Made by a program: the position numbers and the translations under genes
NCBI RefSeq assembly: GCF_044704955.1
Contig: NC_092008.1
Location: forward strand, 761,556 to 808,000
From: Pristiophorus japonicus
Lineage: Eukaryota
Length of the DNA: 46,445 nt
Direction of reading: 5' to 3'
Notes under the pieces: generated by a model
Told to the model about the DNA's origin: nothing
Database searches by the model: none
The model's input: the letters and a program-made list of their open reading frames with translations, nothing else
Shown here: positions 1 through 42,337 of the stretch, piece after piece
How the letters are laid out: every line of letters starts with the position of its first letter
Numbering within the stretch: the first letter of the stretch is position 1

Positions 1-97
1 AAGGAGTTTAGACCGACATCAGCCCCACTCCCTCGTCTCCTCTCACCCCCTCCCCGTCCGCCCCCCGCCCCGGGCGAGTTGCAGCCCGTCTCCGTAC

Positions 98-143
98 CAG
101 AGAGGTGATGTGTCCGTGAGGAACGTCGTCAGGATCTTCTTCC
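98..143 (-). CDS. NAA10: NAA10 coding exon 4 (N-alpha-acetyltransferase 10, NatA catalytic subunit); gene continues beyond window start
   Basis: Minus strand reads ag|G GAA GAA GAT CCT GAC GAC GTT CCT CAC GGA CAC ATC ACC TCT CTG|gt = (M)EEDPDDVPHGHITSL, as in vertebrate NAA10; 46 nt; phase matches exon 3. Confidence 0.96.
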
Positions 144-406
144 CTGAAAAAAAAACACACGTGTTTAAAATCAAGACGGCCGTGGACGGTGCGATGACAT
201 CGGGGGGAGGTTTATAAACACCCCAGGGTGCAGTGACTCAATGCCCCACAATGGTGGGGGAGGGGGGGGAGGAAAAGAGGGCTCCCGGGTCCCACTCTGC
301 GCCCCGCTAACGTTAGACGCACCTGCCCCCGTGGGGTACGGTGGATCATCATCGGACAACGGGTCACGGGGCGATGGGGACAGGCAGTCAGGAACTGAGC
401 CTCCGG

Positions 407-1130
407 AAGGGACAGGAGGAGGCCGTTCAGCCCCTCGAGCCTGTTACATTAGGGACAGGAGGGGGCCGTTCAGCCCCTCGAGCCTGTTACATTAGGGACA
501 GGAGGAGGCCGTTCAGCCCATCGAGCCTGTTACATTAGGGACAGGAGGAGGCCGTTCAGCCACTCGAGCCTGTTACATTAGGGACAGGAGACCGTTCAGC
601 CCCTCGAGCCTGTTACATTAGGGACAGGAGGGGGCCGTTCAGCCCCTCGAGCCTGTTACATTAGGGACAGGAGGAGGCCGTTCAGCCCCTCGAGCCTGTT
701 ACATTAGGGACAGGAGGAGGCCGTTCAGCCCCTCGAGCCTGTTACATTAGGGACAGGAGGAGGCCGTTCAGCCCCTCGAGCCTGTTACATTAGGGACAGG
801 AGGAGGCCGTTCAGCCCCTCGAGCCTGTTACATTAGGAACAGGAGGAGGCCGTTCAGCCCCTCGAGCCTGTTACATTAGGGACAGGAGGAGGCCGTTCAG
901 CCCCTCGAGCCTGTTACATTAGGTACAGGAGGAGGCCGTTCAGCCCCTCGAGCCTGTTACATTAGGAACAGGAGGAGGCCGTTCAGCCCCTCGAGCCTGT
1001 TACATTAGGGACAGGAGGAGGCCATTCAGCCCCTCGAGCCTGTTACATTCGGGACAGGAGGAGGCCATTCAGCCCCTCGAGCCTGTTACATTAGGGACAG
1101 GAGGAGGCCATTCAGCCCCTCGAGTCTGCT
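407..1130. repeat. 43-bp minisatellite derived from a CR1 LINE 3' end
   Basis: Tandem ACATTAGGGACAGGAGGAGGCCGTTCAGCCCCTCGAGCCTGTT running into reverse-strand CR1 3' sequence. Confidence 0.9.
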
Positions 1131-1530
1131 CCACCAATCAATGAGATCGTGGCTGATCTGTATCTTAACCCCAGCTACCCGCCTTGGTTCCATAACCCTG
1201 AATACCCTTCCCCAACAAAAATCAATCGATCTTAGTCTTGAAATTTCTAATTGACCCCCGACCGCGACAGTGTTTTGGGGGAAGAGAGTTCCAGATTCCC
1301 ACGGCCCTTTGTGTGAAGAAGTGCTTCCTGACATCACAAGTGAATGGCCGGGCTCGAATTTTAAGGTGACGAGCCCTTGTTCTGTACTCTTTCCCTCCCC
1401 CACCCCACCAGAGCAAAGTTTCTCTCTATCTACCCTGTCGTAATCCTTTAAGCATTGTTAATGCCTCGATTGGATCACCCTTAATCTTCAGTACTCGAGG
1501 GAACATAAGAAATAGGAGCAGGAAGCGTGG
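1131..1530 (-). mobile_element. CR1 LINE 3' fragment
   Basis: Minus-strand translation RTRARHLKIRARPFTCDVRKHFFTQRAVGIWNSLP, typical of the CR1 ORF2 C-terminus. Confidence 0.8.
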
Positions 1531-1658
1531 GAGGGGGCTGGTGTGGAGCACAAACCCCGGCACGGAGCGGTGGGGCCTAACAGCCCGTTTGTGGGCCGTA
1601 CACACTGCGGAATTCTCTGCACTTGAACCGATCGGACACGGGGCTGCCTGTCACTCAC

Positions 1659-1717
1659 ATTTTAGCCAGAACGTAGCCAACGATCTTTCCGTTCTCATCC
1701 TCGGCGATGTAAGAGAG
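1659..1717 (-). CDS. NAA10: NAA10 coding exon 3
   Basis: cag|CTC TCT TAC ATC GCC GAG GAT GAG AAC GGA AAG ATC GTT GGC TAC GTT CTG GCT AAA AT|gtgagt = LSYIAEDENGKIVGYVLAK(M); 59 nt. Confidence 0.96.
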
Positions 1718-1928
1718 CTGGATGGCGGNNNNNNNNNNNNNNNNNNNNNNNNNNNNNNNNNNNNNNNNNNNNNNNNNNNNNNNNNNNNNNNNNNNNNNNN
1801 NNNNNNNNNNNNNNNNNNNNNNNNNNNNNNNNNNNNNNNNNNNNNNNNNNNNNNNNNNNNNNNNNNNNNNNNNNNNNNNNNNNNNNNNNNNNNNNNNNNN
1901 NNNNNNNNNNNNNNNNNNNNNNNNNNNN

Positions 1929-2148
1929 CTGGGGGGGGGAGTGACCTACAACTGGGGGGGGAGGGGGCGTGACACGCCACTGGGGGGGGGAGGGGGCGTG
2001 ACCTACCACTGGGGGGGGGAGGGGGCTTGACCTACCACTGGGGGGGGGGGGCTTGACCTACCACTGGGGGGGGGGGGGGGGAGGGGGCGTGACCTACCAC
2101 TGGGGGGGGGTGCGGGGGGGGGGGCGTGACCTACCGCTAAGGGGCGTG
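1929..2148. repeat. G-run minisatellite (GTGACCTACCACTGGGGGGGGGAGGGGGC-like) beside N-gap 1729-1928
   Basis: About 7 degenerate units with long G tracts. Confidence 0.8.
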
Positions 2149-2386
2149 TGTACATTCACCTGCGAGCCGAGGCAGCGCGGTGGGCGTGGCCATGCCTGGG
2201 GGCGTGGCTCGGGCCATGCCCATAAAAGGCGGCGGCCGCGCGCACCTGGGCCGTCGCCTGGGGGCGTGGCTCGGGCCATGCCCATAAAAGGCGGCGGCGG
2301 CGGCAGCAGCGTGCGCGCGATGGCCGCCTGAGTCCGGCCTGTAAACCTGCGGGCCGAGGGCCGAGGGCCGAGCGGCTTCCACCCAC

Positions 2387-2407
2387 CCTGGCGTTGCGGA
2401 TGTTCAT
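2387..2407 (-). CDS. NAA10: NAA10 coding exon 1 (MNIRNAR)
   Basis: Kozak gccgccATG, then MNIRNAR and a gtgggt donor; matches the NAA10 N-terminus. Confidence 0.95.
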
Positions 2408-2529
2408 GGCGGCGCGGCTGTGTGGGCTTGCGGTGAGGCGTCGATGCTCTGTCCGTCCGTCAATGGCCGCTCTCTCTCTCTCTCTCCCTCAGCCCCCGGG
2501 TTTGAATCGCTCGCTCTCGCTCTCAGCGC

Positions 2530-3070
2530 ACCAACCGTACCCTCGCCGCCACCACGTGACCTCCTCAGCGCCCTTCCCATTGGCCTCACCCACCACCTGA
2601 CCCGCTTCGTCCAATCAGCGCCGCGCTCCGCCCCGATTGACATCCGCGTCGTCCAATCAGACGGCGGTGGGGTGGGGGGGGTGGGATCACCTGAGGGCGG
2701 GATCACAGCCCTGCGCCCGTCACCCACTCGCAGCCAATCCCAGGCCGGGACTCGCGATTGACAGCCCAGCCCGCCAATCGGGCTGAGAGTGACCGCGAAT
2801 GACAACGCGACGGACCAATCCGCTCTGAGGCAGCTCCCCCCCCCCCCACCAACCATTGACAATCGGCTCCGAGAGTGCGCCCTGATTGACAAGGTGAAAG
2901 ACCAATCATACGTCTAGCCTTGTAGTCCGCCTGGCAGCCAATCAGCAGCAAGTCCCTCTTTATTTTAACCCCGCCCACTCTTAAAGGGGAACTTTCTGTG
3001 AATTCAGGGGGAGCCAGTTGGAAGGTGGGGGGGAAGAAAATAAATCAGTCAGGGAATCTTCCGGAAGCCG
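2530..3070. promoter_or_regulatory. NAA10 CpG-rich promoter with a dense CCAAT-box cluster
   Basis: CCAAT at 2611, 2653, 2734, 2774, 2815, 2902, 2938; ATTGG at 2579; CACGTG E-box ~2553; CCGGAAG (ETS-type) at 3061; immediately upstream of the NAA10 ATG. Confidence 0.8.
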
Positions 3071-3296
3071 CTCCAGTGACTCCGCCCCCCCCCACAGTGC
3101 CGGAGGGGCGCCGAGCGAGGACAACCTCTGCCTCGGCGGTGATGCCGGCTGCAGTCGAACTGCCGAGCTTCGTCCGTACAGAATCAACACCGTCCCGGAG
3201 GGGGTCAACACCGAGGGTCGTCGACTCAACCCGGAAACTTCCCTCCTGCCTTTGACCCACTGCCCGGTCATGGGGGCACGGAGCTGGACTTCACAA

Positions 3297-4060
3297 CGGG
3301 AGGAGGCCGTTCAGCCCCTCGAGCCTGTTACATTAGGGACAGGAGGAGGCCGTTCAGCCCCTCGAGCCTGTTACATTAGGAACAGGAGGAGGCCGTTCAG
3401 CCCCTCGAGCCTGTTACATTAAGGACAGGAGTAGACCGTTCAGCCCCTCGAGCCTGTTACATTAGGGACAGGAGGAGGCCGTTCAGCTTCTCGAGCCTGT
3501 TACATTAGGGACAGGAGGAGGCCGTTCAGCCCCTCGAGTCTGTTACATTAGGGACAGCAGGAGGCCGTTCAGCCCCTTGAGCCTGTTACATTAGGAACAG
3601 GAGGAGGCCGTTCAGCCCCTCGAGCCTGTTACATTAGGGACAGGAGGAGGCCGTTCAGCCCCTCGAGCCTGTTACATTAGGGACAGGAGGAGGCCGTTCA
3701 GCCCCTCGAGCCTGTTACATTAGGGACAGGAGGAGGCCGTTCAGCCCCTCGAGCCTGTTACATTAGGGACAGGAGGAGGCCGTTCAGCCCCTCGAGTCTG
3801 TTACATTAGGGACAGCAGGAGGCCGTTCAGCCCCTCGAGCCTGTTACATTAGGAACAGGAGGAGGCCGTTCAGCCCCTCGAGCCTGTTACATTAGGGACA
3901 GGAGGAGGCCATTCAGCCCCTCGAGTCTGTTACATTAGGGACAGGAGGAGGCCATTCAGCCCCTCGAGCCTGTTACATTAGGGACAGGAGGAGGCCGTTC
4001 AGCCCCTCGAGCCTGTTACATTAGGGACAGGAGGAGGCCGTTCAGCTCCTCGAGCCTGCT
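3297..4060. repeat. 43-bp CR1-tail minisatellite, second array
   Basis: Same unit and orientation as 407-1130. Confidence 0.9.
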
Positions 4061-4084
4061 CTGCCATGTGACTGGGTCTGTGGT

Positions 4085-4173
4085 TCTCATATTGGACTGT
4101 TCAGCCACTTAAGGACTCACTTTTAGAGTGGAAGCAAGTCTTCCTCGATTCCGAGGGACTGCCTATGATGATG
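4085..4173 (+). mobile_element. RTE-clade LINE 3' tail
   Basis: GTGGAAGCAAGTCTTCCTCGATTCCGAGGGACTGCCTATGATGATG, matching the RTE 3' ends at ~41670, ~32500 and ~41870. Confidence 0.75.
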
Positions 4174-4210
4174 GAGGAGAGTGTTCTCAGTGCCTGGTTG
4201 CCACAGTGCT

Positions 4211-4562
4211 GGGATTAGCTATTCTGGCTCAGTATTGACCCCACGTACCATAACTTGACGGACAAATGGGAGACGGAGAGATGACGCAGTTCTGTTCAGA
4301 TGGGCCGAGGCACAGTGATCTTTGGAGGGTGTTAAGAAGGAAGTAACTCCCGTGAAATCCTGATTACCCTTGACCCAAGAATGGGGTGCCTTCACCTAAA
4401 GTGTCCAGAAAACTAGGTGTTCTTAGCCTGGCCATTGACGTCAAAGGGACACAGGGTCCCTTATCGTGACATTACAATTAAGAGATCATGTTTTGAACAT
4501 GGTGGCTGGGGGGGGCTGGGGGTGGGTGGGGGGAAGAGATAACTCTTCGAGTGCCGTATAAA
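4211..4562 (+). promoter_or_regulatory. Putative relic LWS opsin promoter (CRX/OTX-type site and TATA box)
   Basis: GGGATTAG (reverse complement CTAATCCC) at 4211-4218; TGATTA at 4361; TATAAA at 4557-4562, about 90 nt upstream of the exon 1 ATG. Confidence 0.55.
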
Positions 4563-4652
4563 GCCTCCCGCCTGTCTGCGGAGCGATGTGCAGTTCACGG
4601 TCTCGGGGGGGTGGGAGTCACCGCGATGAGGCCCGGCGATCGACGAGGGGAC

Positions 4653-4777
4653 ATGATGGGACCATGGGCTCTGGTGGCCTTTGTGACCAGGCGGAGGTAC
4701 AAGGAGGAGGAGGAGGAGGAGGAGGAGGAGGAGACGATGACCAGGACCAGCGTCCGCCTACACCAACAGCACGAAGG
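4653..4777 (+). pseudogene. OPN1LW: LWS opsin pseudo-exon 1
   Basis: MMGPWALVAFVTRRRYK(E10)TMTRTSV/[frameshift]/AYTNSTK(G), resembling the LWS N-terminus (W..A.FAARR...E.TR.S.F.YTNSN.TRG); phase-1 donor reads gcgagt rather than gtgagt. Confidence 0.8.
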
Positions 4778-4934
4778 GCGAGTCCGCAATATAAACCGCG
4801 TCCCAGTGAAGGGCCGCCCCCGCATCGCGCAGGCCGTCACGCGCTCTCGCCTCGCGGGGCGTGCTGCACAGAAACGGGGCCCAAGGTGCCAGCGTTTATG
4901 CTGCACTCCACCCTGCCCTGGGAATCGCTGGCAA

Positions 4935-5314
4935 GTCCAAGACGGCGAGGAGGATCGCCCTTCGTTTGGCAGCGATCTCGTTGGCCACAAAGTCGAGTCG
5001 CTCCATGAAGGCCTCCCAATCGTCCCCTTCTCAGCATTTCTCCAGGATGACAACAGTTCTCTGCATTTTCGCGTGATGGTTCGTTATCTCGTCGCCAGTT
5101 GTTATGTTCAGAATAAAGTAATGTAACTGAGTACTGTAGATGTCAGCAAGTGTGACCTTGGTCTCTTTTTATTCTAACTCCAGAGTGCTGGCACAGCATG
5201 GGGGGCCTGCTTATATACAGTGCTCCCAAGGGATGCTGGGATCCCTTGGGACTCTAACAGGTACGCCCTCTGGTGGTAGTATAATACTGGTTACATAGGG
5301 TTGCATACATAACA
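4935..5314 (-). mobile_element. Truncated Gypsy element: LTR (5100-5314), primer-binding site and gag start
   Basis: TGTTATGT...ACATAACA termini (215 bp), TGGCGACGAG primer-binding site, then decayed gag (ILEK..EGDDWEAF.ERL..FVANE..AAKRRAILL) homologous to the gag at 9697. Confidence 0.85.
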
Positions 5315-5408
5315 CCTAATTGGCCCTCGAAGGTGGTGGTGAGCCACCGCCTTGAACTGCTGCAGTCCTGTGTGGTGAAGGTGCTCCCACAGTGCTGTTA
5401 GGGAGGAA

Positions 5409-5638
5409 TAACCCTTGCCCCTGGACCAAGACCTCGCTCTGTCAAGCCCCGTGTGGTGGCTGGTGTGCAACGGTCACCCCATGTTAAAACAATCCACCCA
5501 CAGGCATCTTCCACCCTTCAGGATGTAGTTCAGGATCTGGAATATTAGGTCCTTCATTGAAACACCTGTGAACTCATCCCTTTTCAGTGTGGAAGCAAGT
5601 CATCCTCACTTCGAGGGACTGCCTATGATGACGATGAT
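5409..5638 (+). mobile_element. Non-autonomous element ending in an RTE-type 3' tail, nested in an older repeat
   Basis: Body matches 39215-39425; ends GGAAGCAAGTCATCCTC..GAGGGACTGCCTATGATGACGATGATG. Confidence 0.7.
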
Positions 5639-5827
5639 GTTAGGGAGGGAGTTCCAGGATTGTGACCCAGCGACGATGAAGGAACGGCCGATATATTTCC
5701 AAGTTGGGATGGTGTGTGACTGGGAGGGGAACGTGGAGGGGGTGGTGTTCCCATGCGCCTGCTGCCCTTGTCCTTCTAGGCGGGTAGAGGTCACGGGTTT
5801 AGGAGGTGCTGCCGAAGAAGCCTTGGC

Positions 5828-6355
5828 CTCCTAACTTGAGGAAGGACGTTCTTGCTATTGAGGGAGTGCAGCGAAGGTTCACCAGACTGATTCCCGGGAT
5901 GGCAGGACTGACATATGAGGAGAGACTGGATCGACGGGGCTTATATTCACTGGAGTTTAGAAGAATGAGAGGGGATCTCATAGAAACATATAAAATTCTG
6001 ACGGGACTGGACAGGTTAGATGCAGGAAGAATGTTCCCGATGTTGGGGAAGTCCAGAACCAGGGCTCACAGTCTAAGGATAAGGGGTAAGCCATTTAGGA
6101 CCGAGATGAGAAACTTCTTTACTCAGAGTTGTTAACCTGTGGAATTCCCTACCGCAGAGAGTTGTTGGGGCCAGTTCGTTAGATATATTCAAAAGGGAGT
6201 TAGATGTGGCCCTTACGGCTAAAGGGATCAAGGGGTATGGAGAGAAAGCAGGAATGGGGTACTGAGGGAATGATCAGCCATGATCATATTGAATGGTGGT
6301 GCAGGATCGAGGGGCCGAATGGCCTACTCCTGCACCTATTTTCTATGTTTCTATG
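5828..6355 (+). mobile_element. CR1 LINE 3' fragment
   Basis: LRKDVLAIEGVQRRFTRLIPGMAGLTYEERL...NFFTQ; (TTTCTATG)n tail. Confidence 0.9.
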
Positions 6356-6359
6356 AGAT

Positions 6360-8000
6360 CCCACCCTCTCCATTCCCCCCCATCACTGTCTCCTTCCATT
6401 CCTTTCTCCCCCATGTGTTTATCCAGCCTCCCCCTGAAATGCATCGATACTATTGGCCTCGAGCCCTCCCTGTGGCAGCGAGTTCCACATTCCCACCGCT
6501 CTCTGGGTAAAGAGGTTTCTCCTGAATTCCCCATTGGGTTTATCAGTGACTGTCTGATATTGGTGGCCCCCGAGTTCTGGTCTCCCCCACAAGTGGGAAC
6601 ATCTTCTCTACGTCTACCCCATCGAACCCCCTTCATAATCTTACACCCCTCCATCAGCTCACCCCTCAGCCTTCGCTTTGCTAGAGCAAAGATCCTCAGC
6701 CTGTTCAATCTCTCCCGCTAGTTGAAACGAACCCCACGTATCCGATTAAACAGACTGCAGTCCCTTTAATCACTGAAATTTCTTTCACTGCATAGTCTAC
6801 ACAGCTTTGATCGCCATGCTATAAAAAGGATATACAAGCACTAGAGCAGGTGCAAAAAAAGGATTTACAAGGATGATACCAGAACTGAGGTTATAACTAT
6901 CGGGGATGGCTGAACAGGCTGGGGATCTTTCAGGAAGAGCAGGAGTCGGCCATTCGGCCCCTCGAGCCCGCTCCGCCATCCAATCAGATCACGGCTGATC
7001 TTCGACCTCAACTCCACTTCCCCGCCCGATCCCTCGATTCCCCTCGAGTCCAAAAATCTATCGATCTCAGCCTTGAATATACTCAACGACTGAGCCTCCA
7101 CAGCCCTCTGGGGCAGAGAATTCCAAAGATTCACAGATTCCCGACAAAAGAGAAACATAGAAAATAGGTGCAGGAGCAGGCCATTCGGCCCTTCGAGCCT
7201 GCACCACCATTCAATATGATCATGGCTGATCATTCCCTCAGTACCCCATTCCTGCTTTCTCTCCATACCCCTTGATCCCTTTTTTCCGTAAGGGCCACAT
7301 CTAACTCCCTTTTGAATATATCTAACGAACTGACCCCAACAACTCTCTGCGGTAGAGAATTCCACAGGTTAACAACTCTGAGTAAAGAAGTTTCTCATCT
7401 CGGTCCTAAATGGCTTACCCCTTATCCTTAGACTGTGACCCCTGGTTCTGGACTTCCCCAACATCGGGAACATTCTTCCCGCATCTAACCTGTCCCGTCC
7501 CGTCAGAATGTTATATGTTTCCATGGGATCCCCTCTCATCCTTCTAAATTACAGTGAATATAAGCCTAGTCGATCCAGTCTTTCTTCATATGTCAGTCCC
7601 GTCATCCCGGGAATCAGTCTGGTGAACCTTCGCTGCACTCCCTCAATAGCAAGAATGTCCTTCCTCAGATTAGGAGACCAAAACTGAACCCAATATTCAA
7701 GGTCCTGTACAACCCTAAAGGCTGAGGGGTGAGCTGATGGAGGGGTGTAAGATTATGAAGGGGGTTCGATGGGGTAGACGTAGAGAAGATGTTCCCACTT
7801 GTGGGGGAGACCAGAACTCGGGGGCCACCAATATCAGACAGTCACTGATAAACCCAAATAAATCAGGCTCGAGGCGAATAGTATCGATGGATTTAAGGGG
7901 AGGCTGGATAAACACATGGGGGGGGAAAGTAATAGAAGGAGACGGTGATGGGGGAGATGGAGAGGGGTGGGAGTGGGCTGGTGTGGATCATAAACCCTGG
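6360..8000. mobile_element. Cluster of CR1 fragments in both orientations
   Basis: 7153-7700 is a minus-strand relative of 5828-6355; 6537-6672 and 7718-7856 are reverse complements; CR1 ORF2 C-terminal motifs. Confidence 0.8.
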
Positions 8001-8013
8001 CACAGAGCGGTGG

Positions 8014-8709
8014 GCCCAGTGACCCCTGGGTTAGAGAGAGAGAGGAAATCAGCCAGGGTTCCTGCTCCTGATCACTGCCCAGTGACCCCCTGAGTTAGAG
8101 AGAGGGGGAAATCAGCCAGGGTTCCTGCTCCTGATCACTGCCCAGTGACCCCCTGAGTTAGAGAGAGGGGGAAATCAGCCAGGGTTCCTGCTCCTGATCA
8201 CTGCCCAGTGACCCCTGGGTTAGAGAGAGAGGGGAAATCAGCCAGGGTTCCTGCTCCTGATCACTGCCCAGTGACCCCTGGGTTAGAGAGAGGGGAAATC
8301 AGCCAGGGTTCCTGCTCCTGATCACTGCCCAGTGACCCCTGGGTTAGAGAGAGGGGAAATCAGCCAGGGTTCCTGCTCCTGATCACTGCCCAGTGACCCC
8401 TGGGTTAGAGAGAGAGAGGAAATCAGCCAGGGTTCCTGCTCCTGATCACTGCCCAGTGACCCCTGGGTTAGAGAGAGGGGAAATCAGCCAGAGTTCCTGC
8501 TCCTGATCACTGCCCAGTGACCCCTGGGTTAGAGAGAGGGGAAATCAGCCAGGGTTCCTGCTCCTGATCACTGCCCAGTGACCCCTGGGTTAGAGAGAGG
8601 GGAAATCAGCCAGGGTTCCTGCTCCTGATCACTGCCCAGTGACCCCTGGGTTAGAGAGAGAGAGGAAATCAGCCAGGGTTCCTGCTCCTGATCACTGCCC
8701 AGTGACCCA
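8014..8709. repeat. ~60-bp minisatellite (reverse orientation of the arrays at 25.8-30.9 kb)
   Basis: Tandem CCCAGTGACCCCTGGGTTAGAGAGAGGGGAAATCAGCCAGGGTTCCTGCTCCTGATCACTG. Confidence 0.92.
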
Positions 8710-8910
8710 GTGGCAGTTTTCATTGTAAGTGCTGACATAGATCGGGAAAAAGGAAATGCAAGGAGCTGCATATATTTAATATATCGGAACAGATACCTCT
8801 CTCGCTAAACGGTCGGTAACCTCGAACGCTCCCATTAACGCTCCTTCTGGCCGCTAACTGAGGCGTTGGACCACCGAGAATCCAGCCCAATGCCTTTATT
8901 CCAACTTTCG

Positions 8911-9078
8911 GTACTGGCCATCTGGACTGAAGACGTCATGCGGGCCGGATATGTTCAGCGGGAGCTCGGACCCTGGCGGCCAGTCCTACATGATCACACT
9001 GACCCTCACCTGTGCCGTGTTCTCCTGTCGCCATCATCGTCACCCTGCTACTGACAAGTCTGGATGGCCAACCGAGCG
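8911..9078 (+). pseudogene. OPN1LW: LWS opsin pseudo-exon 4
   Basis: YWPSGLKTSCGPDMFSGSSDPGGQSYMITLTLTCAVF/+1/PVAIIVT/+1/CY*QVWMANRA|gtgag; acceptor reads tttcg instead of ag. Confidence 0.95.
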
Positions 9079-9453
9079 GTGAGCAAATAACTCTTTGCAC
9101 CTTCATCCACACATGGCCCCTCTCTGCGTCATCCCACTCAAACATGGCTCAGTCACACTCACGCAATCGCTCTCGCACTCGCACTCGTTCTCACTCAGAC
9201 TCACTCTCACGCATTCACTCACACACACGCACACAGACACACGCTCTCATATACTCATACACTCACTCACGAGTGTGTGTGTTTAGGTTGTGAGGTAAGT
9301 GTGTGCTGTAGGTGTGATTGGTGTAAGCGATGCCCGTGTGACGCAGTGTGACTGGTTCGATGCCCGTGTGATGTAGTTCGATGCCCGTGTGACGGTTCGA
9401 TGTCCGTGTGACGCAGTGTGAGCGATGCCCGTGCGAGGCAGTGTGACAGGTTC

Positions 9454-12400
9454 TGTTGTGTATCTGTAAAGCATGCACTCCCATATTCTGCCACCAGGGA
9501 GCGCATCCCCTGAAGTCCCAATGGATCCCAGCATTCCTTGCGAGCACTGTATATAAGCCGGCCCCTAAGGACTGTTCCTCACTCTGGAGTGTCTTACTAA
9601 AGACTGAGGTCACTGTTACTTTAACCTCCCTGCGTGCAGCCTCATCTGTGTTAGGAACACAATAACTTGCGACGAGTATACGAATCCAACGCAAAGATGC
9701 AGCAAACTGGGGGCATCCTGGAGAAGTTCTCGGAGGGTGAGGACTGGGAAGCCTATGTCGAACAGCTAGACCAGTACTTTGTAGCCAACGAGCTGGATGG
9801 AGAAGGAAGCGCTGCAAAAAGGAGAGCGGTCCTCCTCACAGTCTGCGGGGCACCGACCTACAGCCTCATGAAGAATCTTCTGGCTCTGGTGAAACCCACA
9901 GATAAGTCGTATGAGGAGCTGTGTACACTGGTTCGGGAGCATCTTAACCCGAGGGAGAGCGTGCTGATGGCGAGGTATCGGTTCTACATGTGCCAGCGAT
10001 CTGAAGGCCAGGAAGAGGTGAGCTATGTCGCCGAGCTAAGGCGACTTGCAGGACAATGTGAGTTTGATGGCTACCTGGAGCAGATGCTCAGAGACTTTTT
10101 TGTACTGGGCATTGGCCACGAGACCATCCTACGAAAACTTTTTGACTGTAGAGACACCGACCCTCAGCAAGGCCATTGCGATAGCACAGGCGTTTATGTC
10201 CACCAGTGATAACACCAAACAAATCTCTCAGCACACAAGCGCTAGCAATGTTCATAAATTAACTGGAACTGTGTTTGCAAGCAGAAATGTACAGGGCAGA
10301 AACCATGAGTCTGCAACTGCCAGCAGCCCTCAGGTGACCCAGATGACTCAGTCCCCAACAAAGGATGAATGCAAGGCAATTCACACCTTGTTGTCGTTGT
10401 GGAGTCTTCCATTCAGCCTATTCATGCCGCTTCAAAGGGTATGTTTGCAAGAGCTGTGGAACAATGCGGCACTTCCAACGAGCTTGCAGATGAGCTGCAA
10501 GCTCTGCAAAATCTGCTAACCACCACGTGGCAAAGGAAGATCGGTCCACGGTGGATCAAAGCAATTTCGAGCCTCAGAGAGAGGAGGCAGATGCTGAAGT
10601 ACACGGAGTGCACACATTTTCAACTAAATGTCCATCTATAATGCTAAGTATAAAATTGAATGACTTATCCGTAGCCATGGAACTGGACACTGGCGCTAGC
10701 CCAATCCATCATGAGTAAAATGATGTTTGAGAGACTGTGGTGCAACAAGGTATTCAGACCAGCCCTGAGCCCCATCCACACGAAACTGAGAACGTACACC
10801 AAAGAGCTCATCACTGTCCTGGGCAGCGCCATGGTCAAGGTCACCTACGAGGGCACGGTGCACGAACTGCCACTCTGGATTGTCCCGGGCAATGGCCCCA
10901 CACTGCTTGGAAGGAGCTGGCTGGGCAAAATCCGCTGGAACTGGGATGACATCTCACATGTCGATGAGGCCTCATGTACCCAGGTTCTTAACAAATTTCC
11001 TTCCCTTTTTGAGCCAGGCATTGGAAACTTTTCCGGGGCGAAGATGTGGATCCACTTGGTCCCAGAGGCACGACCCATTCACCACAAGGCGCGAGCGGTA
11101 CCTCACATGATGAGGGAGAGAGTGGAAATCGAGCTGGACAGGCTGCAACGCGAGGGCATCATCTCCCCAGTGGAATTCAGCGAGTGGGCCAGCCCGATTG
11201 TTCCAGTACTCAAAAGTGATGGCATGGTCAGGATTTGCGGTGATTATAAATCGTTTCTCGCTACAGGACCACTACCTAAGGCAGACGACCTATTTGCAAC
11301 GTTGGCAGGAGGCAAGACGCAGGAGCTGGAGGAGTCTTCGAAGGGCCTCACCTGCATCAACACACACAAGGGACTGTTCATCTACAACAGATGTCCGTTT
11401 GGAATTCGGTCGGCTGCAGCGATCTTCCAGAGAAACATGGAGAGCCTACTCAAGTCGGTTCCACACACGGTGGTCTTTCAGGACGACATATTGGTCACGG
11501 GTCGGGACACCGCCGAGCACCTATAAAACTGGAGGAGGTCCTCCGGCGACTGGATCGCGTAGGGCTGCGGCTGAAGAGGTCGAAATGCATCTTCATGGCA
11601 ACAGAAGTGGAGTTTTTGGGGAGAAAGATCGCGGCGGACGGCATTCGGCCCACAGATGCCAAGACAGAGGCTATCAGGAACGCGCCCAGGCCACAGAACG
11701 TCACGGAGCTGCAGTCGTTCCTGGGAATCCTCAACTATTTTGGTAACGTCCTACTGGGGTTAAGCACCCTCTTAGAGCCCCTACATGTGTTATTGTGCAA
11801 AGGTGAGAACTGGGTATGGGGGAAAAAAAAACAAGTAATTGCTTTTGAGAAAGCCCGAAACATTTTATGCTCCAACAAGCTGCTTATATTGTATAACCCG
11901 TGTAAAAGACTTGTGCTAGCATATGATGCGCCGTCGTACGGAGTCGGGTGTGAAAGAGGCATTAGCATGTGTGTTCGGGGTAAAGCAAATGCATCAGTAC
12001 CTGTTTGGCCTCAAATTTGAGTTGGAAACCGATCACAAGCCCCTCACATCCCTGTTCGCTGAAAACAAGGGAATAAATACTAATGCCTCAGCCTGCATAC
12101 AAAGGTGGGCACTCACACTATCAGCGTATAACTACACCATCCGCCACAGGCCAGGCACCGAGAACTGTGCGGATGTTCTCAGTCGGCTACCATTGCCCAC
12201 CACGGGGGTGGAAATGGCGCAGCCTGCAAACTTGTTAATGGTGGAGCAGCCCGCAGACTTGTTGATGGTCATGGAAGCGTTTGAAAATGATAAATCACCT
12301 GTCACAGCCCGCCAGATTAGGACTTGGACCAGCCAAGGTCCTCTGCTGTCCCTAGTAAAAAAACTGTGTACTGCATGGGAGCTGGGCCAGCATCCCCGTT

Positions 12401-13908
12401 GAAATGCAAGAGCCATTCAAGCCGTTCCAGCGGCGAAAGGATGAGCTGTCCATTCAGGCAGACTGCCTGTTGTGGGGTAACCGCGTAGTGCTACCCAGAA
12501 AGGGCAGGGAGACGTTCATCTCGGATCTCCACAGCACACACCCGGGTATAGTAATGATGAAAGCGATAGCCAGATCCCACGTGTGGTGGCCCGGTATCGA
12601 CTCTGACTTAGAGTCCTGTGTACAGCAATGCAGTGTATGTGCTCAGTTGAGCAACGCGCCCAGAGAGGCACCACTAAGTTTGTGGTCCTGGCCCTCCAGA
12701 CCATGGTCGAGGATCCATGTCGACTATGCGGGCCCGTTTCTCGGTAAAATGTTCCTGGTGGTGGTGGATGCTTTTTCAAAATGGATTGAATGTGAAATAA
12801 TGTCGGGAAGCACCGCCACCATTGAAAGCCTGAGGGCCATGTTTGCCACCCACGGCCTGCCTGACATACTGGTCAGTGACAACGGGCCATGTTTCACCAG
12901 TGCCGAATTTAAAGGATTCATGACCCGCAATGGGATCAAACATGTCACCTCGGCCCCGTTTAAACCAGCCTCCAATGGGCAGGCAAAGCGGGCAGTACAA
13001 ACCATCAAACAGAGCCTCAAACGAGTCACAGAAGGCTCACTCCAAACCCACCTGTCCCGAGTACTGCTCAGCTACCGCACGAGACTTCACTCGCTCACAG
13101 GGCTGCCCCCGGCTGAGCTACTCATGAAAAGGACACTTAAAACCAGACTCTCACTGGTTCACCCCAACCTGCATGATCAGGTAGAGAGCAGACGGCAGCA
13201 ACAAAATGTAAACGATGGTCACGCCACTGTGTCACGGGAAATTGATCTGAATGACCCTGTGTATGTGCTAAACTATGGACATGGTCCCCAGTGGATCGCG
13301 GGCACGTTGATAGCTAAAGAAGGGAGTAGGGTGTTTGTAGTCAAACTGGACAATGGACAAATTTGCAGAAAGCACCTGGACCAAACGAGGCTGCGGTTCA
13401 CAGACTGCCCTGAACAACCCACAGCAGACACCACCTTTTTCGAGCCCACAACACACACCCAAAGGATCAACGACACCACGCCGGACCAGGAAATCGAACC
13501 CATCACGCCCAACAGCCCAGCAAGGCCAGGCTCACCCAGCAGCCCCGCAGGGCCAACAACACGCCAGCCCAGCGAGGGCACAGCCAACACACCAGAACAG
13601 ACATTTGTACCGAGGTGGTCCACCAGGGAAAGAAAGGCTCCCGACCGCCTCACCTTGTAAATAGTTTTCACTTTGACTTTGGGGGGCGGGGGGGTGATGT
13701 TGTGTATCTGTAAAGCATGCACTCCCATGTTCCACCACCAGGGAGCTCATCCCCTGAAGTCCCAAGGGATCCCAGCATCCCTTGGGAGCACTGTATATAA
13801 GCCGGCCCCCAAGGCCTGTCCCTCACTCTGGAGTGTCTTATTAAAGACTGAGGTCACTGTTACTTTAACCTCCCTGTGTGCAGCCTCATCTGTGGTAGGA
13901 ACACAATA
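9454..13908 (+). mobile_element. Full-length decayed Gypsy/Ty3 LTR retrotransposon
   Basis: 211-bp LTRs at 9454-9664 and 13698-13908; target-site duplication GGTTC (9449-9453, 13909-13913); primer-binding-site-like TTGCGACGAG; G-rich polypurine tract ~13680-13697; domain order gag-protease-RT-RNase H-integrase. Confidence 0.97.
9697..13660 (+). pseudogene. Gypsy gag-pol, frameshifted
   Basis: gag (FSEGEDWEAYVEQL), zinc-knuckle-like Cys/His ~10390-10490, protease LDTGAS, RT FQDDIL, RNase H with internal deletion (SYGVGC jumps to KEALAC..ETDHKPL), integrase HHCC plus IHVDYAGP/VSDNGP. Confidence 0.93.
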
Positions 13909-13925
13909 GGTTCGATGCCCGTGTG

Positions 13926-14144
13926 ATGCAGCAGAAGGAGTTGGAGACGACCCAGAAGGCAGAGAGGAGGTGTCGAGGATGGTCATCGCCTACATCTTCT
14001 GCTGGGGTCCTCACACCTTTGCCATCTTTCCTGCCTTTAAACCCCTGTTCCTCCTTCCACTCGCAAGCCGTCGCCTTGCCCACGTACTTTGCCAAGAATG
14101 CCACCATCGACAACCCCGTCATCTACGTCTTCATGAACCGACAG
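13926..14144 (+). pseudogene. OPN1LW: LWS opsin pseudo-exon 5 (main part)
   Basis: [13 protein letters not shown]/-1/[24 protein letters not shown]/+1/[35 protein letters not shown]; retinal-binding Lys and NPxxY retained; donor reads tt instead of gt. Confidence 0.95.
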
Positions 14145-14297
14145 TTGGGCAACCAGGATCTCCTCGTCACTAAACAGCTTCCTGAGTTACCTCCCTCGCC
14201 CTCGCCCCCCTCCCTCCCTCCCTTTCCCTCTCCCACTCCTCCCTCTCCACCCCAACATGTCTGGGACACAGTCATTGATTGACATACCTCCTAAAGT

Positions 14298-14755
14298 GCA
14301 GAGGGAGCTTTACTCTGTATCTAACCCCGTGCTGTACCTGCCCTGGGAGTGTTTGATGGGACAGTGTAGAGGGAGCTTTACTCTGTATCTAACCCCCTGT
14401 ACCTGCCCTGGGAGTGTTTGATGGGACAGTGTAGAGGGAGCATTACTCTGTATCTAACCCCCTGTACCTGCCCTGGGAGTGTTTGATGGGACAGTGTAGA
14501 GGGAGCTTTACTCTGTATCTAACCCCGTGATGTACCTGCCCTGGGAGTGTTTGATGGGACAGTGTAGAGGGAGCTTTACTCTGTATCTAACCCCGTGATG
14601 TACCTGCCCTGGGAGTGTTTGATGGGACAGTGTAGAGGGAGCTTTACTCTGTATCTAACCCCCTGTACCTGCCCTGGGAGTGTTTGATGGGACAGTGTAG
14701 AGGGAGCTTTACTCTGTATCTAACCCCCTGTACCTGCCCTGGGAGTGTTTGATGG
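14298..14755. repeat. 65-bp satellite array
   Basis: Tandem GGGACAGTGTAGAGGGAGCTTTACTCTGTATCTAACCCCCTGTACCTGCCCTGGGAGTGTTTGAT. Confidence 0.93.
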
Positions 14756-14825
14756 CTCTGATGTCTCTCCAACGTCCAAAACGGAGGTCTCCTCAGTTTC
14801 CAACTCCTCGGTTGCTCCAGCCTGA
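14751..14825 (+). pseudogene. OPN1LW: LWS opsin pseudo-exon 6, 3' part
   Basis: DGSDVSPTSKTEVSSVSNSSVAPA*, the LWS C-terminus; the 5' part (FRNC...) is absent and satellite DNA abuts it. Confidence 0.92.
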
Positions 14826-16324: not shown

Positions 16325-16372
16325 ATGCAGCTCAGCGTCAAACTGCTGCACGGCACCGAGAGCCGGCTGGAG
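16325..16372 (+). CDS. UBL4A: UBL4A exon 1 (ubiquitin-like protein 4A / Get5)
   Basis: MQLSVKLLHGTESRLE|gtgggg; 16 codons, like human MQLTVKALQGRECSLQ. Confidence 0.9.
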
Positions 16373-17707: not shown

Positions 17708-17813
17708 GTGCCTGAGAACGAGACGATAGCCGCCGTCAAGGCCATCATCGCTGACAAGCTCCACATCCCCGTGGTTCAGCAACGACTGCTGTACAAGGGA
17801 AAGGCCCTGTCAG
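17708..17813 (+). CDS. UBL4A: UBL4A exon 2
   Basis: ttcag|VPENETIAAVKAIIADKLHIPVVQQRLLYKGKALS+G|gtaaag; ubiquitin-fold QRLLxKGK motif. Confidence 0.93.
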
Positions 17814-20958: not shown

Positions 20959-21152
20959 ACGAGCACAGACTGACAGACTATGGCATCCGGCCCAACACCA
21001 AGCTGAACCTGGTGGTGAGACCCGTGGACAGGACCTCCCCTGACGGGACCCCGCAGGGCGGCAGAGCCCAGCCGTGGCAGCTTATCCTCGAGATCCTCGA
21101 GAAACACTTTGCGCCGGCGGACGCAGAGAAGGTTCTGGAACAGCTGCAGAAG
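20959..21152 (+). CDS. UBL4A: UBL4A exon 3
   Basis: ccag|(D)EHRLTDYGIRPNTKLNLVVRP...PWQLILEILEKHFAPADAEKVLEQLQK|gtaac; phase consistent with exon 2. Confidence 0.94.
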
Positions 21153-21289
21153 GTAACGCCTGGCGCACAAGCTTGCGGACCTTGCGTTGAAACCCGACTG
21201 GAGCCTGGTGCTGCAATTCTGGACAACGCAGTGCAGGCAGGGTGTGAGGTCAGGGTGCGGGACAGATTGAGCAGAATGGTCCCAGGGTG

Positions 21290-22036
21290 TGTGATGGGGC
21301 AGTGTAGAGGGAGCTTCACTCTGTATCTAACCCCCTGTACCTGCCCTGGGAGTGTTTGATGGGACAGTGTAGAGGGAGCTTTACTCTGTATCTAACCCCC
21401 TGTACCTGCCCTGGGAGTGTGTGATGGGACAGTGTAGAGGGAGCTTTACTCTGTATCTAACCCCCTGTACCTGCCCTGGGAGTGTTTGATGGGACAGTGT
21501 AGAGGGAGCTTTACTCTGTATCTAACCCCCTGTACCTGCCCTGGGAGTGTTTGATGGGACAGTGTAGAGGGAGCTTTACTCTGTATCTAACCCCCTGTAC
21601 CTGCCCTGGGAGTGTTTGATGGGACAGTGTAGAGGGAGCTTTACTCTGTATCTAACCCCCTGTACCTGCCCTGGGAGTGTTTGATGGGACAGTGTAGAGG
21701 GAGCTTTACTCTGTATCTAACCCCCTGTACCTGCCCTGGGAGTGTTTGATGGGACAGTGTAGAGGGAGCTTTACTCTGTATCTAACCCCGTGCTGTACCT
21801 GCCCTGGGAGTGTTTGATGGGACAGTGTAGAGGGAGCTTTACTCTGTATCTAACCCCGTGCTGTACCCGCCCTGGGAGTGTTTGATGGGACAGTGTCGAG
21901 GGAGCTTTACTCTGTATCTAACCCCCTGTACCTGCCCTGGGAGTGTTTGATGGGACAGTGTAGAGGGAGCTTTACTCTGTATCTAACCCCCTGTACCTGC
22001 CCTGGGAGTGTTTGATGGGACAGTGTAGAGGGAGCT
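21290..22036. repeat. 65-bp satellite array in UBL4A intron 3
   Basis: Same unit as 14298-14755, about 11 copies. Confidence 0.93.
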
Positions 22037-37513: not shown

Positions 37514-37729
<216 letters not shown>

Positions 37730-37804
37730 TCAGAGCGGGCGAGCGATCGGAAACTAACACCCCCCCCCACCCCCACATTCTACCCCCTCGAGCCCCACGG
37801 ACAC

Positions 37805-39056
37805 CGGACGCTGAATTTGCTGGAGTTCTTCGAGGATGTAACGAACAAGGTGGATAAAGGGGAACCAGTGGATGTGGTGTATTTGGATTTCCAGAAGGCA
37901 TTTGATAAGGTGCCACGTGAAAGGTTACTGCACAAGATAAATGTTCACGGGGTTGTGCGGTAATATATCAGCATGGATAGAGGATTGACTAACTAACAAA
38001 AAATCGTGAGTCGGGATAAATGGGTCATTCTCGGGTTGGCAATCAGTACCTAGTGGGGTGCCGCAGGGATCAGTGCTGGGTCCCCAACTATTTACAATCT
38101 ATATTAACGACTTGGAAGAAGGGACTAAGTGTAACGTAGACAAGTTTGCTGATGATACAAAGATGGGAGGAAAAGCAATGTGTGAGGAGGACGCAAAAAA
38201 TCTGCAAAAGGACATAGACAGGCTAAGTGAGTGGGAAAAAATTAAGCAGATGGAGTATAATGTGGGAAAATGTGAGGTTATCCACTCTGGCAGAAAAAAA
38301 TAAAAAACTAATTATTATTTAAATGGAGAAAGATTGCAAAGTGCCGCAGTACAGCGGGACCTGGGGGTACTTGTGCATGAAACACAAAAGGTTAGTATGC
38401 AGGTACAGCAAGTGATCAGGAAGGGCCAATGGTATCTTGGCCTTTATTGCAAAGGGGATGGAGTATAAAAGCAGGGAAGTCTTGCTCCAGTTATACAGGG
38501 TATTGGTGAGGCCACACCTGGAGTACTGCGTGCAGTTCTGGTCTCTGTATTTACGAAAGAATATACTTGCTTTGGAGGCAGTTCAGGGAAGGTTCACTCG
38601 GTTGATCCCGGGGATGAGGGGGTTGACTTATGAGGAAAGGTTGAGGAGGTTGGGCCTCTACTCATTGGAATTCAGAAGAATGAGAGGTGATTGTATCGAA
38701 ACGTGTAAGATTATGAGGGGGTTTGACAAGGTGGATGCAGAGAGGATGTTCCCACTGATGGGGGAGACTAGAACTAGGAGGCATGGTCTTAGAATAAGGG
38801 GCCGCCCATTTAAAACTGAGATGAGGAGGAATTTCTTCTCTCAGAGGGTTGTAAATCTGTGGAATTCGCTGCCTCAGAGAGCTGTGGAAGCCGGGACATT
38901 GAATATATTTAAGACAGAGATAGACAGTTTCTTAACCGATAAGGGGGCGGGCAGGGAAGTGGAGCTGAGTCCATGATCGGATCAGCCATGGTCGTATTAA
39001 ATGGCGGAGCAGGCTCGAGGGGCCGAATGGCTGACTCCTGCTCCTATTTCTTTCTT
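37805..39056 (+). mobile_element. CR1 LINE, RT region to 3' end, decayed
   Basis: VDVVYLDFQKAFDKVP, GVPQGSVLGP, KFADDTK, RPHLEYCVQFWS motifs with stops and frameshifts. Confidence 0.95.
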
Positions 39057-39064
39057 ACGTAGAA

Positions 39065-39425
39065 CCGTCCCGCACAGACAGACCTTGGAAGGACGTGATC
39101 GGGGCCCAGGAGAGGCCGAGGGCCCGGGGGGCAGCACGGGCCCAGCCCACACACTGTGCGATATGTTGTGTGCACTGGGTCCGTGCAGCAGAGCTGGTCT
39201 CCAGTCCTCCTGGTTAACCCTTGCCCCTGGACCCAGACCTCGCTCTGTCGAGCCCCGTGTGGTGGCTGGTGTGCAACGGTCACCCCACGTTAAAACAATC
39301 CACCCACAGGAACGTTCCACCCTTCAGGATGTAGTTCGGGATCGGGAATATTAGGTCCTTCATTGAACTCATCTCTTTTGGCGTGGAAACAAGTCATCCT
39401 CGTTTCGAGGGACTGCCTAAGATAA
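39065..39425 (+). mobile_element. Non-autonomous element with an RTE-type tail
   Basis: Longer copy of 5409-5638. Confidence 0.7.
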
Positions 39426-39786
39426 TGGGACCTTGGAGCGCAGGTCCACAGATCCCTGAAGGTAGCAGGCCAGGTGGATAAGGCGGTTAAGAAGGCACAT
39501 GGAATGCTTGCCTTCCAGGCAGTGAGTTCCCCCCCAGACCCCCACCACCCTCTGGGTGAAGACATTTCCCCTCAAATCCCCTCTAAACTTCCCCCCAATT
39601 ACTTTCAATCTCTGCCCCCTGGTTGTTGACCCCTCTGCCAAGGGGAACAGGTCCGTCCTATCCACTCTATCCAGGCCCCTCATCATTTTATACACCTCAA
39701 TCTGGTCTCCCCTCAGCCTCCTCTATCCCAAGGAAATAAACCCAGCCTCTCCAATCTTTCCTCGCAGCTAAAATTCCACAGACCTG

Positions 39787-40512
39787 GCAACATCCTGGTA
39801 AATCTCCTCTGTACCCTCTCCAATGCAACATCCTGGTAAATCTCCTCTGTACCCTCTCCAGTGCAACATCCTGGTAAATCTCCTCTGTACCCTCTCCAGT
39901 GCAACATCCTGGTAAATCTCCTCTGTACCCTCTCTAGTGCAACATCCTGGTAAATCTCCTCTGTACCCTCTCTAGTGCAACATCCTGGTAAATCTCCTCT
40001 GTACCCTCTCAAGTGCAACATCCTGGTAAATCTCCTCTGTACCCTCTCCAGTGCAATATCCTGGTAAATCTCCTCTGTACCCTCTCCAGTGCAACATCCT
40101 GGTAAATCTCCTCTGTACCCTCTCTAGTGCAACATCCTGGTAAATCTCCTCTGTACCCTCTCAAGTGCATCATCCTGGTAAATCTCCTCTGTACCCTCTC
40201 CAGTGCAACATCCTGGTAAATCTCCTCTGTACCCTCTCCAGTGCAACATCCTGGTAAATCTCCTCTGTACCCTCTCCAGTGCAACATCCTGGTAAATCTC
40301 CTCTGTACCCTCTCCAGTGCAACATCCTGGTAAATCTCCTCTGTACCCTCTCCAGTGCAACATCCTGATAAATCTCCTCTGCACCCTCTCCAGTGCAACA
40401 TCCTGGTAAATCTCCTCTGCACCCTCTCCAGTGCAACATCCTGGTAAATCTCCTCTGCACCCTCTCCAGTGCAACAACCTGGTAAATCTCCTCTACACCC
40501 TCTCCAGTGCAA
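39787..40512. repeat. 38-bp minisatellite grown from a CR1 ORF2 segment (ALERVQRRFTRML)
   Basis: Tandem GCAACATCCTGGTAAATCTCCTCTGTACCCTCTCCAGT, flanked on both sides by colinear minus-strand CR1 sequence (~39520-41160). Confidence 0.92.
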
Positions 40513-41159
40513 TCACATCCTTCCTGTAATGTGGTGACCAGACCTACACGCAGTACTCCAGCTGTGACCAAACCAGTGTTTTATACAGTTCAAGAACAAC
40601 CTCCCTGCTCTTGTATTCCATGCCTCGACTAATAAAAGCAAACATAGAAAATAGGAGCAGGAGTCGGCCATTCGGCCCCTCGAGCCTGCACCATTCAATA
40701 CGATCATGGCTGATCCTCTATCCCAACACCATATTCCCGCTTTCTTCCCATACCCCTTGATGCCTTTTGTGTCTAGAAATCTATCTGTCTCCCTCTTAAA
40801 TATATTCAATGACGTGGCCTCCACAGCCTTCTGTGGGAGAGAATTCCACAGGTTCACCTCCCTCGGAGTGAAAACATTTCTCCTCATCTCGCTCCTAAAT
40901 TTCCTGCCCCGTATCCTGAGACTGTGTGAGCCCTTGTTTTAGACTTCCCAGCAAGTATTCCGTATGCCTTCTTAACCACCTGATCCACCTGGCCTGCTAC
41001 CTTCAGGGATCTGTGGACCTGCACTCCCAGGTCCCTCTGTTCCTCTACACTTCTCAGTGTCCGACCGTTCAATGTGTATTCCCTTGCCTTGTTAGCCCTC
41101 CCCAAATGCATTACCTCACACTTCACTGGATTAAATTCCATTTGCCTATTTCCCTTAGC

Positions 41160-41706
41160 AGAATCCCCCGGGAGGACAGACGCACCAACGTTAGCATCCT
41201 CGACCAGGCCCAACATCCCCAGCATCGAAGCACTGACCACACTCGACCAGCTCCGCCGGGCAGGGCCACATTGTCCGCATGTCCCCCCAGACACGAGAGT
41301 CCCCAAAGCAAGCGCTCTACTCGGAACTCCTTCACGGGCAAACGGGCCAAAGGTGGGCAGAGGAAACGTTACAAGGGACCACCCTCAAAGCCTCCCTGAT
41401 AAAGTGCAACATCCCCACCGACACCTGGGAGTCCCTGGGCCCAAAGACCAGTCCGCCCTCAGTGGAGGGAGTGCATTCGGGAGGGGTGCTGAGCACCTCG
41501 AGTCTCGTCGCCGAGAGCGTGCAGAAACCAAGCGCAGGCAGAGGAAGGAGCGTGCGGCAAACCAGTCCCACCCTCCCCTTCCCTCAACCACTGTCTGTCC
41601 CACCTGTGACAGGGACTGTGGTTCCCGTATTGGGCTGTTCAACCACCTAAGGACTCACTTTAATAATGGAAGCAAGTCTTCCTCGATTCCGAGGGACTGC
41701 CTCTGA
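41160..41706 (+). mobile_element. RTE LINE 3' fragment
   Basis: EDRRTNVSILDQA, PSIEALTTLDQLR, CPTCDRDCGSRIGLFNHLRTH. Confidence 0.9.
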
Positions 41707-41857
41707 TAAACCACCTGATCCACCTGGCCTGCTACTATCAGGGATCTGTGGACCTGCACTCCCAGGTCCCTCTGTTCCTCTACACTTCTCAGTGTCTGAC
41801 CGTTTAATGCGTATTCCCTCGCCTCGTTAGCCCTCCCTCCTCACAGATAAGGCGGTT

Positions 41858-42220: not shown

Positions 42221-42337
42221 AGGGGGTCAACCACCAGGCGTTTGCCGGTGGGCGGGATATTTGACTGCAGGGGGCGTCACGGCCCAGCCCCCCTCAACAC
42301 CGATCAAACTCTTGCTTTGGGCCAGTGGTCCTCTTAC

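Follow-up and report, generated by a model that had tools for sequence, protein, structure and literature searches.

Pseudogenes of the red (LWS) cone opsin gene, together with rod monochromacy, are known from cetaceans (PMC3630094), and among cartilaginous fishes there are reports that LWS was lost, or could not be recovered, in catshark, skates, blue shark, and silver chimaera (PMC11979771; PMC12361510; PMC12952989). A reviewer of PMC12361510 doubted claims of LWS loss for want of synteny, and the reason for the loss of a given cone opsin is left open in PMC11886822. Shark opsin losses have so far been argued mostly from absence, and a readable remnant would serve both as an anchor for synteny and as a fossil that can be dated. 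In this study we examined a 46,445-nucleotide stretch of the 5.9-Gb genome of Pristiophorus japonicus (NC_092008.1:761556-808000, hereafter the window), in which a sequence-only reading by a model had placed the fossil of an LWS gene. We regard it as highly probable that the locus is a single broken LWS copy in a block resembling human Xq28 and that, with RH2 and PDE6C broken as well, rod-only vision is likely.

An LWS remnant and its lesions

Frameshift-aware alignment against three shark and ray LWS proteins, with splice sites read directly, reproduced the coordinates of the four colinear plus-strand exons claimed in that reading, namely exons 1, 4, and 5 and the tail of exon 6 (Table 1). 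The damage it described (at least five frameshifts, an in-frame TGA, a lost acceptor, a lost donor, and a GC donor) was borne out by the alignment and the splice sites. We count five frameshifts over the remnant exons; where exactly the indels fall, and whether the TGA came about by substitution or through indels, both depend on the alignment. Pseudo-exon 4 retains an intact GT donor at 9079. Pseudo-exon 5 keeps the codon for the retinal-binding lysine and has a 12-nt in-frame deletion, and its 5' end was scrambled or destroyed where a Gypsy element was inserted, a lesion missing from the earlier list. Among the tuning residues, Y277 and T285 are in red-type states, while S197 and T308 are altered. 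The GC donor of exon 1 was considered as a possible transposon junction, and this was rejected: it stands because positions 4778-4939 are single-copy and the Gypsy fragment begins only at 4940.

Exon profiles run over 166,445 bases around the locus gave E values of 0.0023 for exon 1, 2e-20 for exon 4, 8e-17 for exon 5, and 7e-13 for the exon 6 tail. The corresponding alignment scores were 63, 213, 214, and 97, against maxima of 37, 35, 35, and 30 in 30 resampled sequences per exon. Searches with tblastn were weak for exons 1 and 6 (best E, 8 and 0.04), for which the exon profiles were clear. The open frame, seven helices, and usable splice sites of a functional LWS pigment gene are not found together here. 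A processed pseudogene does not fit either, as introns with splice-site remains separate the exons and the site is syntenic. Exons 1, 4, 5, and 6 are ordered and end at the expected residues, in agreement with the six-exon LWS structure with its extra 5' exon.

All four remnant exons scored highest against the LWS class. Compared with PDB sequences, the exon 4 frame matched LWS/MWS opsins at E values of 5e-14 to 1e-13, versus 0.42 for SWS1 and 0.59 for rhodopsin. Identity of the remnant was 64 to 74% to 14 chondrichthyan LWS proteins, 59 to 66% to nine other LWS proteins, and 36 to 43% to RH1, RH2, and pinopsin. In a tree of 37 sequences and 191 surviving columns, composed of LWS, RH1, RH2, and pinopsin and leaving aside SWS1 and SWS2, the stitched exons fell inside the chondrichthyan LWS clade with an ultrafast bootstrap support of 100, and not with RH1, RH2, or pinopsin. 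Support for its placement among sharks within that clade was only 14 to 15. The remnant branch measured 0.45, versus 0.15 or less for the 14 other chondrichthyan LWS sequences.

Otherwise invariant residues were changed at 13 of 101 sites in the remnant, versus 16 of 1152 pooled over 12 LWS proteins from rays, carpet sharks, and lamniforms, with Heterodontus and Callorhinchus excluded (p 7e-8). By this protein-level proxy for neutrality, the remnant appears to have lost selective constraint.

Searches of the assembly for a second LWS returned none among the candidates scored. An exon 4 query matched its own locus alone in the genome assembly, and a full shark LWS query (108 matches; best 112 of 462 candidates scored) found only other opsins and unrelated receptors, so that no intact LWS was seen elsewhere among the scored assembly candidates. 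Two of the other opsins are, we presume from their sequences, a pinopsin (contig C16) and a VA-like gene (contig C3); the pinopsin-like gene looks open. The claim of a unitary LWS pseudogene is thus supported by the tree, by sequencing reads over exon 4 (see below), and by the failure to find a second copy.

Several points weigh against this reading. The genome searches score the best candidates only (112 of 462 here, 150 of 169 in the search for exons 2 and 3) and cover assembled sequence only, and GC-rich micro-contigs can drop out of assemblies. The invariant-site test is not specific, since 10 of 111 such residues are changed in chimaera LWS2 and 11 of 102 in a Heterodontus model. If the remnant were a dead duplicate, an intact LWS would lie elsewhere, absent from the assembly. 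Contigs that carry shark LWS models are in several cases short (51 kb, 57 kb, 110 kb, and 304 kb), so LWS is hard to assemble, and the chimaera has two LWS genes (PMC11886822). However, no second LWS exon was found among the best candidates scored, the remnant lies within the syntenic block, flanked by two housekeeping genes, on a contig of 12.4 Mb, and most of PDE6C has been deleted, leaving any cone opsin without its effector enzyme. We consider a surviving second copy very unlikely.

Table 1. Features of the LWS locus and of two other damaged visual genes. Positions are those of the window unless prefixed G000.
Feature	Position	Strand	Remarks
LWS pseudo-exon 1	4653..4777	+	Frameshift near 4755; expanded GAG run; GC for GT at 4778
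LWS pseudo-exon 4	8911..9078	+	Acceptor is CG; +1 near 9023; +1 near 9045; TGA at 9052
LWS pseudo-exon 5	13926..14144	+	-1 near 13965; second frameshift at ~14018-14036; donor is TT
LWS pseudo-exon 6 tail	14751..14825	+	Includes stop codon
Truncated Gypsy-family fragment	4940..5283	-	Long terminal repeat piece and gag start; in expected place of intron 1/exon 2
Gypsy long terminal repeat retrotransposon	9454..13908	+	~4.5 kb; broken into several frames; adjoins 5' edge of exon 5
65-bp tandem array	14295..14755	+	In place of exon 6 acceptor and 5' half
TATA-like hexamer	4557..4562	+	Candidate; ~95 nt before opsin ATG; presumed motif, no chance control
CRX-like hexamers	4212 and 4361		Candidates; presumed motif, no chance control
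NAA10 first coding exon	2387..2407	-	Head-to-head with opsin remnant; from translation
NAA10 further exons	1661-1726, ~98-145, and upstream of the window	-	
UBL4A coding exon 1	16325..16372	+	
UBL4A exon 2	17708..17813	+	
UBL4A exon 3 and last exon	20959-21152; last exon ends near 23631	+	
RH2 pseudogene	G000:C17:95519073-95532971		TGA in exon 2; 15-nt in-frame deletion
PDE6C remnant	G000:C3:296036361-296037114		Last three exons only, residues 731-835 of 851

Lesions in sequencing reads

The read check covered LWS exon 4; the lesions of exons 1, 5, and 6 rest on the assembly. The exon 4 stretch was present in six of seven listed runs, from two studies, with no RNA run listed among them. Four runs were compared with it: X1, possibly the source sample; X5 and X6, from a second study; and X7. 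Differences numbered zero in X1 over 8836-9150, one substitution and no gap in X5 over 8715-9081, and zero in X6 over 8925-9081, while X7 did not cover exon 4. The exon 4 lesions are therefore found in three of the four runs, two of them from the second study, and their presence in contigs of that study means that they are not assembly errors. The single substitution, T to A at 9040 in X5, lies within pseudo-exon 4 and is a polymorphism or an error at a depth of 5.9.

Assembly or sequencing errors in a functional gene could be suspected because the locus is GC-rich and repeat-dense and the check is confined to exon 4. For that exon the reads refute the suspicion, and beyond it whole exons are gone and a 4.5-kb element with a target-site duplication stands at the exon 5 boundary; we give this explanation practically no weight.

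Lost exons, transposons, and satellites

Exons 2 and 3 left no detectable remnant in the 166,445 bases around the locus (exon profiles; best E, 5.7 and 2). Genome-wide there was likewise none, the 43 matches (best 150 of 169 candidates scored) being topped by 50% identity to other opsins. A candidate for exon 2 at 4802-4843 scored 32, a value attained by 0 of 60 resamples, and 30, attained by 1 of 60; having been chosen post hoc and being far more diverged than exon 4, it was treated as chance. Repeats make up 89% of positions 4780-8910. The sequence-only reading had proposed decay in situ in place of a clean deletion, and this stands for the remnant, which is in place; exons 2 and 3 and the 5' half of exon 6, on the other hand, were deleted, and a transposon was inserted.

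That transposon, the Gypsy element at exon 5, has long terminal repeats at 9454-9664 and 13698-13908, identical at 198 of 211 positions (13 sites differ; Kimura two-parameter distance, 0.065), a 5-bp target-site duplication, and reverse transcriptase, RNase H, and integrase domains. A degenerate minisatellite flanks the insertion at 9326-9453 and 13909-13925, ending within the opening codons of exon 5; duplications of the junction between intron 4 and exon 5, older than the insertion, may have given rise to it. The 65-bp unit that replaces part of exon 6 recurs at 21287-22036 and 43252-44155. Minisatellite units of 33/38, 43, 61/62, and 65 bp occur at 408-44155 in separate arrays, in different introns and both orientations, as if mobile.

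Other visual genes and rod-only vision

The opsins of the P. japonicus genome group with shark and ray sequences. RH2 is a pseudogene; besides the lesions in Table 1, the acceptor before exon 3 is GG and the donor after exon 4 is AT, both dead. Its exon 1 is 88% identical to Heterodontus green opsin. The RH2 pseudogene has S292, as does chimaera RH2. RH1 is intact, with five open exons, canonical splice sites, and S292, a blue-shifting state that amounts to a change of -10 nm (PMC11886822). No SWS-like locus appeared among the top genome-search hits or in the 166-kb block. The cone opsins that were found, LWS and RH2, are broken and RH1 is intact, the opsin pattern of a rod monochromat.

The cone cascade was assessed through PDE6C, GNAT2, and the last exon of CNGA3. 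With a cone-type PDE6 query, PDE6A-like and PDE6B-like genes were whole, and a third PDE6 locus matched cone PDE6C best but retained only its end (Table 1); no other PDE6C exon was found in 190 kb without N. A gene that is RBP4-like by its motifs begins 27 kb upstream of this remnant. A further PDE6C candidate, on contig C1 at 336 Mb, was rejected as not PDE6.

Because LWS, RH2, and PDE6C are all broken, rod-only vision is likely, and on these genomic grounds we hold it to be quite probable. The background idea of the sequence-only reading, that many sharks are cone monochromats, does not fit an animal with a broken RH2 and a largely deleted PDE6C. On the other side of the balance, the gene that we presume to be GNAT2 has eight open exons with canonical splice sites (G000:C13:35831965-35904760) and CNGA3 keeps its large last exon open, so that the cone cascade is only partly decayed. 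Moreover, the RH2 and PDE6C lesions were read from the assembly.

These open genes suggest another arrangement, not strictly rod-only, in which LWS is dead but cones persist on a rod opsin or rod phosphodiesterase together with GNAT2 and CNGA3. Yet no intact cone opsin was found, PDE6C is mostly deleted, and GNAT2 differs from GNAT1 at positions that look conserved; in addition, pineal or other expression could presumably hold such genes open, and the pinopsin-like gene looks open. Persisting cones thus seem improbable beside rod-only vision. The GNAT2-like replacements, at sites conserved with GNAT1, are F to V before the DVGG motif, D to N, and E to G, and the gene may be under relaxed selection. 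The last exon of a CNGA4-like gene continues into an open Q/A/T repeat of ~450 residues (L165:94-1869, minus strand).

A join between pseudo-exon 4 and UBL4A

One X6 contig, of 170 nt, follows exon 4 to 9081 and continues for 13 letters that equal 17711-17723 of UBL4A exon 2. This 13-letter end occurs once in the window and was matched in 0 of 100 shuffles. The join corresponds to the donor after 9078 and the acceptor before 17708 (GT/AG), skipping opsin exons 5 and 6 and UBL4A exon 1. The X5 contig ends at the same base (9081), with seven letters not shown, and also carries intron 3 sequence, as expected from the dead exon 4 acceptor; the DNA run X1 reads on unjoined.

We favor spliced RNA as the source of the join, with fair assurance, and low-level read-through splicing is the likely process. 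Low-level transcription would still cross the LWS locus, and the sole surviving good donor, that of exon 4, would be spliced to the next good acceptor downstream, that of UBL4A exon 2. Such transcripts might start from the former opsin promoter, from the NAA10 promoter that lies head-to-head with it, or from intronic repeats, and the read-through RNA is likely without function. Against splicing, the join is seen in one contig, with 13 letters past the junction, from a run that is not recorded as RNA (the same holds for X5 to X7), and a 4-nt microhomology at the join permits a DNA deletion or a template switch.

The same join, in frame from an ATG at 9064, could mean that UBL4A has gained a functional alternative first exon from pseudo-exon 4, in which five new residues would replace the first 16. 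The exact donor-acceptor junction in X6, the halt of X5 at that base with seven letters left over, and the unique 13-letter end would all agree with this. However, contig depth is low (5.9 and 8.6), the join is absent from X7, which does not cover exon 4 and so says nothing about expression, and the in-frame ATG lies behind five upstream ATGs. A protein made from it would be missing the beginning of the ubiquitin fold, lesions are as numerous in exon 4 as in exon 5, and the microhomology could yield the join by deletion or template switch. A functional co-opted exon is accordingly very unlikely, and we attach the same small chance to its regulated form, in which the dead opsin exon would give UBL4A a new N-terminus or tune its output via upstream frames. 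Read-through without function, which we prefer, still illustrates, on a small scale, how a new exon could arise from a dead gene.

Neighborhood and synteny

The proposed position between NAA10 and UBL4A was confirmed by a downstream NAA10 exon that matches NAA10 at an E value of 3e-17 and by the ubiquitin and Tugs domains of UBL4A. Neighboring genes were taken from 28 hand-picked frames, 14 of which had a Pfam match. Within 166 kb, an FCH-domain gene, a NUDT16-like gene, and NAA10 lie upstream of the remnant, and UBL4A, a C2H2 zinc-finger gene, and Pcc1, LEM, GlcNAc-epimerase, and GDI genes lie downstream. We take UBL4A, LAGE3, EMD, and GDI1 to be in human Xq28. ARHGAP4, NAA10, RENBP, and OPN1LW share one 508-kb segment there (PMC5041540). 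Judged by gene content, the block around the remnant matches the human Xq28 neighborhood of LWS.

From the start of NAA10 to that of LWS (2407-4653) there are 2.2 kb, with neither room for nor trace of SWS2, which adjoins LWS in bony vertebrates; an RH1/RH2/pinopsin profile found no SWS2-like remnant in the 166-kb block. The C2H2 zinc-finger gene of this block (37517-43146, minus strand) presumably resembles KLF15 and is possibly a paralogue lost in mammals. The NUDT16-like gene (L036:4536-5057 and L037:2076-2336, minus strand) has NAA10 on one side and the FCH-domain gene on the other.

Timing and order of loss

The S292 state of RH1 is consistent with a history in which cone vision came under weaker selection in a habitat of dim, blue light. 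Relaxed selection would have let LWS and RH2 decay, and LWS, which would make no pigment, would then have undergone neutral decay that probably lasted tens of millions of years. Shark dS is 0.061 to 0.111 (synonymous divergence) over a split of ~50 million years (PMC13100897). Set against this, the distance of 0.065 between the two long terminal repeats would place the Gypsy insertion at exon 5 roughly 30 to 50 million years ago, with a sampling error that by itself amounts to about half the value either way. The first LWS lesion may be older than the insertion.

Small indels number six in 587 nt of LWS versus one in 1050 nt of RH2 (p 0.01), and replaced invariant residues 13 of 101 versus 17 of 224 (p 0.15). 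Substitution rates are higher near the ends of small GC-rich shark contigs (PMC13100897), and the LWS remnant is near the end of such a contig, so the indel excess is not decisive. We lean slightly toward LWS having been lost before RH2 on these counts. With both cone opsins preserved as datable fossils in one genome, the order of loss becomes testable.

Comparison with known systems

Adjacent genes are known to form read-through chimeric RNAs in which, as here, an internal donor of the upstream gene meets exon 2 of its same-strand downstream neighbor; the upstream partner here differs in being a dead opsin, and the read-through literature that we found holds no mention of opsins.

No description of a shark LWS pseudogene was found in the literature available to us, a body that excludes the pseudogene box in Fig. 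2d as well as the LWS synteny shown in Supplementary Fig. 5 of PMC12361510. A damaged-looking LWS model does exist in Heterodontus francisci (XP_067881752.1, marked LOW QUALITY PROTEIN in RefSeq). It lacks exon 1, its exon 3/4 junction is altered, and 11 of 102 invariant residues are changed; unlike the P. japonicus remnant, it keeps exons 2 and 3, it shares no listed replacement with the remnant, and the Heterodontus RH2 model is intact. To judge from this protein model, the H. francisci LWS gene is likely a pseudogene too, which would be the second in a shark. Any shark or ray assembly can be examined over the NAA10-UBL4A interval, where shared lesions would count and date LWS losses.

The little skate and the small-spotted catshark resemble P. 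japonicus in having no functional LWS (bioRxiv 10.1101/2025.07.30.667746; PMC11979771), and the little skate also has pseudogenized cone cascade genes (bioRxiv 10.1101/2025.07.30.667746). In the portions of those studies available, LWS is not recoverable or lost, with no remnant, and the skate study gives no flanking anchors, whereas here remnant and flanks are readable. The Greenland shark shares a broken RH2, a broken PDE6C, and an intact RH1 (PMC12770505). There, gnat2, cnga3, and cngb3 are pseudogenes, whereas P. japonicus has an open GNAT2 and an open last exon of CNGA3, and lws was searched for with no remnant reported in the portion of that paper available (PMC12770505).

The closest likeness is to cetaceans, dim-blue-light marine animals in which LWS was inactivated in place and RH1 is the sole visual pigment (PMC3630094). 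The shark event is independent, the second cone opsin lost is RH2 and not SWS1 as in cetaceans, and the decay here reaches exon loss and transposon insertion. The kind of event is thus already known, from whale LWS pseudogenes and from the decay of cone genes in the Greenland shark and skate; what P. japonicus adds is a shark LWS remnant that can still be read.

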